Shown: positions 55,311 through 59,405, numbered from the stretch's first letter. The stretch is 64,000 nt of DNA from a bacterium (GCA_030153785.1 JASKLF010000003.1:18673-82672), one strand, 5' to 3'. Notes: a model not told the origin generated them from the sequence alone. Program-made: numbers and translations.

Positions 55311-56633
55311 TTACTTATACCTCCTGACCCTGAACCTGTAAATATTTATAGGTTCCCCCGGAAGAATACCCGCTTTTCTTGAAGCTATATCTATCTGCTC
55401 CTCAACAGTATCAACGCCTTCAAGGTCGGGAAGCAAAAGCCCCTTTCTACCATCGGAAGCCTCAACTATGACTCCATAAACCTTGGGATCAAGCTCCCTT
55501 AGGTCATAAACGGGTTCAGGTTCAGTCAAGACATCAACAGAATACTCCAAATAGGGTAATTCGTCCTCTCTGACAGGCTCAAAACGAGGGTCTTCACTAC
55601 AAGCGGCTATCGCATTTCTTATAACCTCTTCAGCTACATTCTTACGAGTGGGGAGATATGTGCCTATGCAACCTCTTAATTTTCCTCTTTTCTTTATTGA
55701 AACGAAGACGCCAGCTCTTTCCTTCATTTCAGGTATCATCTCTGAAGGAGAAGGAGGAGAGATTATCTTACCCTCCTTAACGAAGGTTTCCACCGCTTTT
55801 CGCGCCAGCTTAACCAAGGGATGTTCTTCCTTAACCACTCTTCTTTGAGGATATATTGCAGCAACACAATAGCCAACGCCAAAAGGCCCTTCATAAGAAA
55901 GAACTTCTGTTTTAACTTCCCACTTATCAAATGCCCCGAAAAGAATTACAATGGGTCTATAACCGCACTCCCCAGCTTCCTCTAAAAAGTAGGGATCCAT
56001 CTTCAAGAGTTCGTCCTTATCAAAGTTTCTAATTATATCGACTATCTTTCTATCAAACTCCTTGCCTTGCGGAGAGTAACCTGCGGGGGCGTCATAAGTT
56101 AAGCGATGAGAAAGGTCTCCACTAGCTATTAAGATTGTAGGAACGGGGTCCTCAAACAAAACATCCTCTAAGAAGGCCCCTATCTCGTAAAGGGTATACG
56201 GAGGAAGGAAGGCAAAACTCATAATAACCAGAGGTAAATTCGCCTTAACCCCCAGAAGATAATATAATGGGACCAATACACCGTGGTCCAGTCGAGAATT
56301 TCTCACCACATCAACGGGTAAACCTCTTGCCTGAGCCTTTCTTACAAAGCTCTCCACAAATTCTCTGTCAGACGGGTAAGAAAAATCTCTCGGTCCACCA
56401 AACTGGCCCAAACTCCCTCTAAAGTTATCAGCCCACAGAACGCCAACAGCATCGCCTAATACTATATTGTGCGGAGTTATAACTATAATCCGTTGCGGAT
56501 TTTTTTCTCTAACCCTTCTTGCGAGAGCTCTAAATCCTTCAACTGTACTCTTAACCTTTTCAACTTCAGGTCCTCCTATCTCAGGTATTATTATCGGAGG
56601 ATGGGGGGTTAATGCACCTAAGACTAATCCCAT
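55311..56633 (-). CDS. amrA: Fused Memo/LigB-like + AMMECR1 protein (AmrB-AmrA)
   Basis: [33 protein letters not shown], then [25 protein letters not shown]. Confidence 0.9.
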
Positions 56634-56650
56634 TTCCCGCTCACCCCCTT

Positions 56651-57664
56651 TTAAAGAATCAACATGGCATCACCGAAGCTATACAGGCGATACCTCTCCT
56701 TTACCGCAATTTCATAAGCTCTCTTCAAAAACTCCTCTCCTGCGAAAGCAGAAACCAAAGCCAAAAGGGTAGTCCTCGGCAAATGGAAATTAGTTATAAG
56801 TCCCTTTAAAACCCTAAACTTAAACCCGGGAAGAATAAATAGATCTGTCCATCCCTTTTTAGGAGAAATAACCCCATTATCATCGCAAACGCTTTCCAAA
56901 ACCCTCGTAGTAGTTGTTCCGACAGCGATCACTCTACGTCCTTCCCTCAATGCAGAGTTCACTTCTAAAGCACACTCTTCGGGAACTTCATAATACTCTG
57001 GTGGAACCTTGTGTTTCCTTATATCTCCTCTTACAGGAAGGAAAGTTGCAGCTCCCACATGAAGAATTAGGAAAGTCATCTTTATACCCTTTTTTCTGAG
57101 CTCCTCCAACACCCTATCCGTAAAGTGAAAGCCTGCGGTGGGCGCTGCAACTGAGCCAGGAACCTCCGCATAAATGGTTTGATAAAGACTGGGATCTTTT
57201 ATCTTCCTTTTTATATAAGGAGGAGTTGGAACCTCTCCTATGCTCTCGAGAATACTTAAAAATCTCTCTCCCCCAACAGAAAAGCGAACTATCCTAAAAC
57301 CCTCATCTAAAACCTCTTCAACTACACAACTTAAACCGTCAGCAAAGACTACCTCCGTTCCCAGCTTAAGCCTCTTTGCCGGACGTGCGATAACTTCCCA
57401 CAAAGTATCATCAAGTCTTCTTATAAGAAGGAGCTCCACCCTCGCTCCACCATTCCTCTTGGTTCCCACAAGGCGGGCCTTTATAACCTTGCTTTTATTA
57501 AAAACAAGGAGGTCCCCCTCTTTTAAAAACTGAGGAAGCATGTAAAACATCGCATGCTCTATCGTTCCCTTTTCCCTATTCAAGACCATTAAGCGAGAAT
57601 GATCCCTTGGATTAGCTGGTTCCTGAGCTATTAACTCTTCAGGGAATTCATAATCAAATATGAT
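56651..57664 (-). CDS. queA: S-adenosylmethionine:tRNA ribosyltransferase-isomerase (start anomalous)
   Basis: [58 protein letters not shown]; the conserved N-terminus lies upstream of the ORF-track ATG with no in-frame canonical start. Confidence 0.93.
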
Positions 57665-57668
57665 ATAA

Positions 57669-57884
57669 TCACCTCCTAAAGATGAGATTCAAGATAACTG
57701 TCAAGACCAAGCTTAAGATGAGACTTGTAACGATCGGGAAGTAGAAGATCATTCCTTTCTTCTCCACATAGATATCTCCCGGAAGCCTACCAATATAAGG
57801 GATTTTGGGGGCAAAAGTAATAACCACACCCGTAATTACTATTATCAGACCAAATATGATTAGCATCTTACCCAAAGATTCCAT
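57669..57884 (-). CDS. DUF2905 small membrane protein
   Basis: GRLPGDIYVEK..FYFPIVTSLILS; start placed at ATG 57884. Confidence 0.9.
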   Translation of the reverse strand: MESLGKMLIIFGLIIVITGVVITFAPKIPYIGRLPGDIYVEKKGMIFYFPIVTSLILSLVLTVILNLIFRR

Positions 57885-58845
57885 TGCAACCCCTCCTTTT
57901 CCAGATATCATAGGCTCGCTGGGTTGCAACTCTTCCCCTTTTTGTTCTCTCTATAAACCCCATTCTCATAAGGTAAGGCTCATACACCTCGGAAATAGTA
58001 TCTGGCTCCTCGTTCAAGGCTGCAGCAAGGGTCTCTATCCCTACAGGACCTCCCGAAAACTTTTCTATAATGACAGAAATGAGCTTCCAATCGGTAGAAT
58101 CTAACCCGTAAGGGTCTACATTATAAAACTCAAAAGCTTTTAAAATGGTTTCCTCATCTATTAAACCTTTACCATTAACCTGTGCATAATCCCTTACCCT
58201 CTTTAAAAGCCTATTAACTATCCTCGGGGTTCCACGCCCCCTCAAAGCCAATTCCTTAGCAGCCTTTTCAGATACCTCTACTCCCAGGATTCGTGCGGAA
58301 CGAAAAACGATCTTTTCGAGGTCCTCTACAGGATAGTAGTCTATTCTCTCTATAACTCCAAATCGGCTCCTAAGCGCCCCCGTTAAAAGACCAAGCCTTG
58401 TCGTAGCTCCCACAAGAGTAAAAGAGGGAAGGTCTATCTTTATAGTCTTCGCCATAATACCCTTTCCAACGACTATATCGATTCTAAAATCCTCCATAGC
58501 GGAGTAAAGCATTTCCTCACAGGAACGCGGTATCCTGTGAATCTCGTCTATAAAAATTACGCTTCCCTTATCGATCCCACTCAGTATAGCAGCAAGGTCT
58601 CCAGCTCTCGTAAGAGAAGGCCCACTTAGCTGAACAAAGGGAGAAGAAAGCTCATTGGCTATTATACTCGCCAAGGTAGTTTTACCCAAACCCGGAGGCC
58701 CATAAAATAGAATATGATCGGGAGACTCTCCTCTTATTTTCGCAGCTTCTATCAACAAGGATATTCTCTTCTTTAGCTCCTCCTGCCCCACAAAGTCGGA
58801 AAGCTTCTTAGGCCTTAAAGACTTTTCCCAGTTTTCCACGATCAC
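57868..58845 (-). CDS. ruvB: Holliday junction helicase RuvB
   Basis: LRPKKLSDFVGQ, GPPGLGKTT, FIDEIHR, RGTPRIVNRLL, GGPVGIETL. Confidence 0.98.
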   Translation of the reverse strand: MIVENWEKSLRPKKLSDFVGQEELKKRISLLIEAAKIRGESPDHILFYGPPGLGKTTLASIIANELSSPFVQLSGPSLTRAGDLAAILSGIDKGSVIFIDEIHRIPRSCEEMLYSAMEDFRIDIVVGKGIMAKTIKIDLPSFTLVGATTRLGLLTGALRSRFGVIERIDYYPVEDLEKIVFRSARILGVEVSEKAAKELALRGRGTPRIVNRLLKRVRDYAQVNGKGLIDEETILKAFEFYNVDPYGLDSTDWKLISVIIEKFSGGPVGIETLAAALNEEPDTISEVYEPYLMRMGFIERTKRGRVATQRAYDIWKRRGCNGIFG

Positions 58846-59405
58846 TTATCCCCCTTAAGGACAGACAATGCTTCTTTCAAGAGCATCTCTACACCCTTCC
58901 CTTTAGTCTCGCTCTTTGCAATTTTTAAAAGGGCCTTGTTAGCCTCCCGCTCCGTATACCCCAAGCTTAGAAGAGCTTCCTTCACTTCAGAGAAAATCCC
59001 TTCTCCACTCAATATTTCCCCTTTGAGCTCAAAAACGATGCGCTTTGCTCTCTTCTCGCCCACCTTTGGGATAGAAGATAGCAAAGAAACATCTTCACTT
59101 TCGATTATCTCCATAAACTCCTTCCATGAGAAGCGATCTAAGATCTCAAAAGAAACCCTCGTTCCTATTTTAGTTAAACTCACTAACTTTTCAAAAAAGT
59201 TTCTGTCGTTTTCATCCAAAAACCCAAAAAGCTCTAAATTGTCCCCCTTGTAATTAAAATAAACATAAAATACGATTTCCTCTTCCTCTTTAATTAACGA
59301 GAGATCTCTTGAAGGGACAAAGATTTCAAAACCAAAGCCATTAACATCCAGAAGAAGTTCCCTATTCCCTTTTCTTACAACTTTCCCTCTAAGATAGTTT
59401 ATCAT
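58842..59405 (-). CDS. ruvA: Holliday junction protein RuvA
   Basis: [22 protein letters not shown], HhH IPKVGEKRAKRIVFELK, ALLSLGY. Confidence 0.93.
   Translation of the reverse strand: MINYLRGKVVRKGNRELLLDVNGFGFEIFVPSRDLSLIKEEEEIVFYVYFNYKGDNLELFGFLDENDRNFFEKLVSLTKIGTRVSFEILDRFSWKEFMEIIESEDVSLLSSIPKVGEKRAKRIVFELKGEILSGEGIFSEVKEALLSLGYTEREANKALLKIAKSETKGKGVEMLLKEALSVLKGDK

Follow-up and report, generated by a model that had tools for sequence, protein, structure and literature searches.

The queA gene in the 64,000-nt stretch of bacterial DNA studied here (GCA_030153785.1 JASKLF010000003.1:18673-82672; hereafter the window, to which all positions refer unless another contig is named) is in all likelihood initiated at a near-cognate codon, ATA at 57661 or ATC at 57664, behind an extended Shine-Dalgarno (SD) sequence. 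ATA (57661-57659) most likely takes precedence over ATC (57664-57662), since it occupies the position that is conserved in related species. The features on which the argument depends are as follows:

56651..57661, minus strand: queA coding sequence if ATA is the start, 336 codons plus stop by open reading frame and translation (a start at ATC 57664 adds one codon)
57587..57589, minus strand: first canonical in-frame ATG, encoding the Met of the conserved RLMVL, at which public gene calls begin (312-aa open reading frame)
57590..57658, minus strand: the 23 codons that precede the first canonical start; codon differences indicate strong purifying selection on them in the queA frame
57659..57661, minus strand: ATA, favoured near-cognate start, adjoining the Phe codon at 57658 (Phe1), 10 nt past AGGAGG; ATT at the same position in relatives G001 and G003
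57662..57664, minus strand: ATC, alternative or additional near-cognate start seen in the sequence, 7 nt past AGGAGG; relatives have AAA and CCT there
57668..57677, minus strand: extended SD AGGAGGTGAT, containing the last two Arg codons and stop of the DUF2905 gene, complementary to 16S rRNA over 10 nt
57669..57884, minus strand: gene for a DUF2905 small membrane protein (PF11146, E 1.5e-22), from ATG 57884 to stop TGA 57671-57669, directly 5' of queA
57670..57672, minus strand: GTG inside the SD (from sequence and spacer counts), opening a 13-codon reading frame and proposed earlier as the start of a frameshifted queA
57689..57691, minus strand: in-frame TGA bounding the queA frame on its 5' side, from open reading frame and translation

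The queA reading frame and its N-terminal codons

Codons of the queA frame start at 57589+3k on the minus strand. Ten of them (ATC TCA TCT TTA GGA GGT GAT TAT ATC ATA) lie between the TGA at 57691-57689 and Phe1, and neither the sequence nor its translation contains an ATG, GTG or TTG in this frame between the two points, so that the claim of the initial annotation that queA has no in-frame canonical start ahead of its conserved N-terminus holds. Across the junction the minus strand reads ATC TTT AGG AGG TGA TTATATCATA TTT GAT TAT GAA TTC CCT. A start-less stretch of ten codons is not rare when taken alone, and it becomes meaningful here because the QueA profile and the conserved sequence begin 5' of the first canonical start. 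The PF02547 match (E 5.9e-125, 417 bits) places residues 3-336 of the ATC-started protein on profile positions 4-322 of 322, with the alignment beginning at Phe1, and the alignments with the QueA PDB chains 1yy3 (1.3e-103), 1vky (6.6e-98) and 1wdi run from the FDY motif onward. This full-length agreement with the profile and with solved QueA structures identifies the product as QueA.

Alternatively, translation might begin at ATG 57589, which is a strong codon and the start chosen by the gene caller (P0002), yielding a 312-aa QueA without the FDY segment and leaving the upstream 23 codons untranslated. However, these 23 codons, whose residues are conserved and would be lost, show ratios of synonymous to non-synonymous differences of 14:2 against G001, 16:1 against G003 and 10:3 against G002, tighter than in the next 77 codons (28:13, 24:18 and 27:18, respectively), and a start at ATG 57589 would therefore discard a segment that is selected at the protein level. 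The same codons match Pfam profile positions 4-26 as well as the solved QueA structures, the Met at 57589 corresponds to an internal conserved RLMVL residue of full-length relatives, and no SD is found in front of it. We consider initiation at this ATG very unlikely. The selection pattern and the Pfam match indicate that the 23 codons upstream of it are translated, and queA is, with high probability, an intact and functional gene.

The public protein record reflects this arrangement. Nine of the ten public protein clusters with at least 72% identity, the window's own P0002 (312 aa) among them, lack part of the N-terminus (296-314 aa), and the only whole cluster at this level is P0006 (340 aa), which is of the G002 type and begins with MRFFDYDLPEE. 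The family's public QueA calls (P0003-P0011) begin either at the internal Met or Leu of RLMVL or at MLPxFL; P0009 differs little from the full-length P0006, yet it is called 26 residues shorter. Among the matches listed at 56% identity or less, by contrast, all 110 cover 99-100% of the query. In public calls, QueA of this family thus loses 23-39 conserved N-terminal residues in nine of ten clusters.

Authenticity of the sequence

The sequence at the 5' end of queA is real and contains no error. Logan contigs from four runs belonging to four studies agree with positions 57300-58100 with no other letters and no gaps, three of them spanning the whole interval and the fourth spanning 57300-58025. 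Three of the four runs are possible sources of the assembly; since only these three are so marked, at least the fourth run, and probably more, are independent. The stretch is also present with all sampled words in runs of four studies, and 91% of the words occur in a run of a fifth study.

These data bear on the suggestion, regarded in the initial annotation as equally possible, that one base was lost from the T run, either through a sequencing or assembly error or through a recent strain-specific mutation that made queA a pseudogene. An extra T in TATTTG would indeed yield an in-frame, GTG-started MIISYFDY. However, the assembled contigs of all four runs are identical and show no extra T at 57656-57659, two other species with 81-84% protein identity are equally start-less, and truncated calls occur in eight of the nine family clusters other than the window's own. 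A pseudogene is likewise at odds with a queA reading frame of 337 uninterrupted codons on which purifying selection acts. The probability of such a deletion is practically negligible, and the four identical assemblies together with the conservation in relatives refute the initial assessment.

The queA start in related genomes

The window's genome belongs to a deep-branching family with no other family of the same class in the genome collection. Three other species represent this family there; the remaining genomes searched are related at the phylum level only. All 41 genomes searched contain queA. In the four family genomes, AGGAGGTGA at the end of the DUF2905 gene is invariant, and it is followed by:

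Window: TTATATC ATA TTT GAT; no canonical in-frame start before Phe1
G001 (same genus): ATTTAAA ATT TTT GAC; no canonical start
G003: AACCCCT ATT TTC GAC; no canonical start
G002: GTG AGG TTT TTC GAT, one base shorter; GTG directly past the TGA

Three of the four family genomes therefore have no in-frame ATG, GTG or TTG before Phe1. In both G001 and G003, the interval from the upstream stop to Phe1 contains a single near-cognate codon, an ATT that adjoins Phe1 and lies 10 nt past AGGAGG. The 7 nt that separate the TGA from this ATH codon are wholly different in the window, G001 and G003 (TTATATC, ATTTAAA and AACCCCT), and an ATH kept at a fixed distance from the SD while the preceding seven bases are unrelated is the pattern left by selection for a start codon. 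The proposal in the initial annotation that ATC 57664 or ATA 57661, both well spaced from the SD, serves as the start thereby gains comparative support, and its call for an alignment of queA 5' ends from relatives is answered in that the broken frame is conserved in two of the three family relatives, the third (G002) having an in-frame GTG. This GTG stands only 3 nt past AGGAGG, and the family is thus not uniform in its arrangement.

Fifty queA loci were examined, two of which do not cover the N-terminus; of the 48 evaluable loci, five have no canonical start, comprising three of the four family loci versus two of the 44 outside the family (L006 and L042). L006 belongs to G017, a genome from another family of the phylum, and there AAGAGGTGATC is followed by TCT GTC ACG ATA GAG CTT TAC GAT, in which ATA is a candidate start; queA of the congeneric genome G011 (L007) begins at a conventional ATG. 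L042 is a metagenome queA with no canonical start for 73 codons. A scan of metagenomes for further queA genes of the family returned 20 loci, all with 52% identity or less, and added no family members.

The Shine-Dalgarno sequence and the DUF2905 junction

AGGAGG occupies 57677-57672 on the minus strand. The 3' end of 16S rRNA in the window's genome reads GGATCACCTCCTTTCT, with which AGGAGGTGAT (57677-57668) can pair over 10 nt. For comparison, we counted spacers in 743 open reading frames of at least 100 codons in this genome whose canonical start lies 3-14 nt past GGAGG. The mode is 8 nt, with 95, 164, 125 and 92 reading frames at 7, 8, 9 and 10 nt, respectively, and only 21 of the 743 at 3 nt, the rare spacing seen at the GTG of G002. 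Both ATC (7 nt) and ATA (10 nt) fall within the main range of 7-10 nt. The upstream gene itself is conventional, with GGAGG followed after 7 nt by ATG 57884, and the C-terminal end of its product, NLIFRR, is conserved in the family genomes together with the stop.

In the mechanism we propose, the initiator tRNA would read the near-cognate codon, giving M-FDYEFPEE from ATA; ATC may be used as well, with a product beginning M-I-FDY. Pairing of AGGAGGTGAT with the 16S tail would hold the 30S subunit 7-10 nt upstream and could in this way compensate for the weak codon. The stop of DUF2905 lies inside the queA SD, 4 nt from ATC and 7 nt from ATA, and ribosomes that end DUF2905 would be released on top of the queA start, so the two genes are probably translationally coupled. 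The DUF2905 gene and ruvB overlap by 17 nt (57868-57884, minus strand), from the ATG of DUF2905 (57884) to the ruvB stop (57870-57868). From this close packing and overlap, we infer that ruvB, DUF2905 and queA form one translationally linked unit. The yield of QueA would be expected, by analogy with work in E. coli and S. aureus, to be low and sensitive to IF3.

Two further candidate contributions to initiation were rejected. A relaxed initiator tRNA is not indicated, as tRNA-fMet is ordinary, showing both a C1xA72 mismatch and an anticodon stem with three G-C pairs, and the RNA fold of the start region shows nothing above shuffled sequences.

Frameshift and fusion as alternative explanations

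A different explanation, put forward in the initial annotation, starts from GTG 57672-57670, which, as stated there, overlaps the DUF2905 stop (TGA 57671-57669) and opens a frame ending after 13 codons. A programmed -1 frameshift at TAT-TTG would join MIISY to FDYEFP, possibly as a queuosine-sensing device. The resulting MIISYFDYEFP resembles the MxxSxFDY with which QueA of other phyla usually begins (e.g., MKLSEFDY in L005 and L008), a T_TTA_AAA heptamer occurs at a compatible place in the GTG frame of G001, and the phase from GTG to queA is identical (-1) in three of the four family genomes. However, the GTG is part of AGGAGGTGA, which leaves a spacing of zero to the SD, and no other SD lies upstream. 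An X_XXY_YYZ heptamer is absent from the GTG frame of both the window and G002, and the only one in G003 lies downstream of FDY. Further, the fold of 57590-57700 (111 nt, -21.8 kcal/mol) does not differ from the shuffle mean (-21.9; z 0.04), the GTG frame of G002 stands in another phase to queA with an in-frame GTG available, and eight other genes of the genome are explained by near-cognate starts with no need of a frameshift. The SD, which had been placed about 13 nt upstream, is indeed 13 nt from the Phe codon when counted from AGGAGG, but the distance to the TAT of the presumed shift site is 11 nt.

Frameshifting of the dnaX type involves an SD-like element upstream of the frame change. queA is similar in that an SD-like element precedes the frame change and a short 0-frame reading frame ends soon after, and it is dissimilar in that the window has no slippery heptamer in the GTG frame, no usable, functional 0-frame start, no downstream stimulatory structure and no conserved phase. 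As for queuosine sensing, FDY is a universal QueA motif, and its Asp and Tyr codons alternate between T- and C-ending forms among the four species (GAT TAT, GAC TAC, GAC TAC and GAT TAC). Since this codon choice is not conserved, queuosine sensing is rejected, and the view of queA as a queuosine-sensing frameshift gene is removed as unsupported. Initiation at GTG 57672 followed by a -1 shift is highly improbable.

It is also conceivable that DUF2905 and QueA are produced as one fused polypeptide, through either a +1 shift at AGG-TGA or read-through of the TGA. queA lies in the +1 frame of DUF2905 in three of the four genomes and in frame behind the TGA in G002, and the AGG-TGA site contains an SD-like sequence, as does the recoding site of prfB. 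Such a fusion would, however, require two recoding mechanisms within one family, with G002 depending on stop read-through and the other three genomes on a +1 shift. In addition, a tRNA-Arg on AGG should be unable to re-pair on GGT, the linker varies in sequence (GGDYII, GGEFKI and GGETPI), and nothing points to a membrane-anchored QueA. We regard this as extremely improbable, and initiation at ATA or ATC remains the preferred explanation.

Other probable near-cognate starts in the genome

In the whole-genome screen, a candidate was an ATT, ATC, ATA or CTG codon lying 5-12 nt past GGAGG (in later rounds, past GGAG or GAGG), with canonical starts absent from the interval that begins at the upstream stop and reaches 10 codons or more past the candidate. 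Because an SD was required, the strong SD of all the near-cognate genes is circular and is no independent result. Besides queA, eight genes have a Pfam domain that begins 5' of the first canonical start and a CTG, ATA or ATT located 7-10 nt past the SD, so that queA is one of at least nine genes of this genome with Pfam-supported putative ATA, ATT or CTG starts. The eight genes are given below, with the position of the first canonical start (counted in codons) and the start codons in the window's genome and the three relatives:

L052, G000:C1:286018-286785, minus strand: NIF3, CTG; first canonical start +28; CTG, CTG, TTG, TTG
L054, C4:38233-39201, minus strand: asparaginase, ATA; first canonical start +16, which would remove the TGGT motif; ATA, ATC, ATC, ATA
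L055, C9:121690-123399, minus strand: PolX, CTG; first canonical start +39; CTG in all four
L056, C9:101037-101603, minus strand: imidazoleglycerol-phosphate dehydratase (IGPD/HisB), CTG; first canonical start +63; CTG in all four
L057, C11:64294-65427, plus strand: radical-SAM enzyme, ATT; first canonical start +71, which would remove CxxxCxxC; ATT in all four
L075, C7:15661-16923, minus strand: aconitase-family large subunit, CTG; first canonical start +105; CTG, CTG, CTG, GTG
L076, C8:523-1068, minus strand: macro-domain protein, ATA; first canonical start +58; relatives, at 38-40% identity only, have TTG, TTG, GTG one codon away
L078, C3:58612-60477, plus strand: MoeA fusion, CTG; first canonical start +25; CTG, TTG, CTG, CTG

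In seven of these eight genes, the three family relatives preserve the position of the start, with either the same near-cognate or a canonical codon. Taken together with queA, the comparisons point to interchange of AUH with AUH, and of CUG with UUG or GUG, at fixed start positions across evolutionary time. Public calls of the other near-cognate-start genes must be shortened in the same way as those of QueA, with the catalytic motifs TGGT of the asparaginase and CxxxCxxC of the radical-SAM enzyme lying upstream of the first canonical start. Since conserved N-termini are located 5' of the canonical starts, pipelines restricted to ATG, GTG and TTG misdescribe such proteins.

The genome's infC (L051, G000:C4, IF3_N match 137423-137629, minus strand) has an ATT 8 nt past GGAGG. 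An in-frame ATG lies five codons upstream and has no SD, so infC seems to retain the AUU start that is usual for IF3.

Based on these observations, we tentatively suggest that the family keeps at least ten ordinary genes on AUA, AUU, AUC or CUG starts as a weak-start regulon whose output tracks IF3 activity, although we rate this as improbable. The proposed set comprises queA, hisB, the leuC-like aconitase, polX, moeA, the asparaginase, NIF3, the radical-SAM enzyme, the macro-domain protein and infC. By the strict screen of the window's genome, it amounts to about 0.6% of genes, compared with 0.05% in the annotation of model genomes, a roughly tenfold difference. If the suggestion is true, the output of these genes would rise and fall together with IF3 activity.

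Six additional genes may use near-cognate starts: UvrC (ATT, L053, C4:87081-88580), MlaE (ATA, L058, C4:110057-110803), DedA (ATA, L077, C1:103796-104401), NAD kinase (NadK; ATC, L079, C1:223833-224708), MgtE (ATA, L080, C13:134133-135530) and an HD-domain protein (ATC, L059, C4:123306-124442). Other matches of the screen were rejected on reading their translations, which have ordinary downstream starts; these are C7:67246-67794, C12:10349-11032 and C13:135343-135717, as well as a putative pyruvate kinase, PlsX, thiamine pyrophosphokinase and a hydrogenase protease.

Comparison with known near-cognate starts

In E. coli, expression of infC and pcnB is limited by an inefficient start codon, and IF3 discriminates against such codons. 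Both genes have AUU as their near-cognate start (cited in PMC13009471 and PMC2268962). Like them, queA would have a near-cognate AUH read by the initiator tRNA, and the genome's own infC has ATT; unlike in these two genes, no autoregulatory logic is evident for queA.

SD-led near-cognate starts are already known as a kind, and queA is very probably a further example. The closest likeness is to genes described in S. aureus, where AUA or AUU starts were mapped for infC, cvfC1, ccpN and citZ, with an extended SD at three of them, and where the starts of cvfC1 and ccpN are conserved in related bacteria (PMC13009471). As in ccpN of S. aureus and B. subtilis (AUA) and in cvfC1 (AUU), citZ (AUA) and infC (AUA) of S. 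aureus, the putative queA start is an AUH at normal spacing from an SD that extends beyond the GGAGG core. Codon and SD are conserved between species in queA as in the genes described there, and reduced initiation is to be expected. queA differs from those genes in its deep-branching lineage, in an SD that holds the stop of the upstream gene, in a family that also uses CTG, and in being known here from sequence alone. Among the papers listed on queA and start codons, no title or abstract opening concerns a non-canonical queA start.

The efficiency of such codons weighs against a near-cognate start for queA. Annotated starts of model genomes are ATG (81.8%), GTG (13.8%) and TTG (4.35%), and AUA, AUC, AUU and CUG in E. 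coli initiate at 1-2% of the level of AUG, according to Hecht et al. (10.1101/063800), which would be very low for a housekeeping enzyme. AUU and AUA reporters in S. aureus are described as reaching about 10% of AUG activity, with ccpN up to 30% in rich medium (PMC13009471). With respect to the junction with DUF2905, re-initiation is reported to employ the initiator tRNA, IF2 and IF3, and an SD lowers the sensitivity to excess IF3 (PMC2268962). If our reading of queA is right, the few conserved genes with weak starts that are known gain a tRNA-modification enzyme as well as a little-studied, uncultured lineage from the subsurface.

Genomic context of queA

tgt was found elsewhere in the window's genome, and the queuosine pathway context of queA is therefore ordinary. 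An Rfam search over 56400-59000 returned only a sub-threshold match to the PreQ1 riboswitch (RF00522; 57201-57241, minus strand; 22.4 bits versus a gathering threshold of 39, E 0.15). It lies inside the queA coding sequence and is probably due to chance, though curious in a queuosine gene. Directly 3' of queA, a 440-aa open reading frame (55311-56633, minus strand) resembles, by eye, a fusion of MEMO1-like (AmmeMemoRadiSam B) and AMMECR1 proteins.
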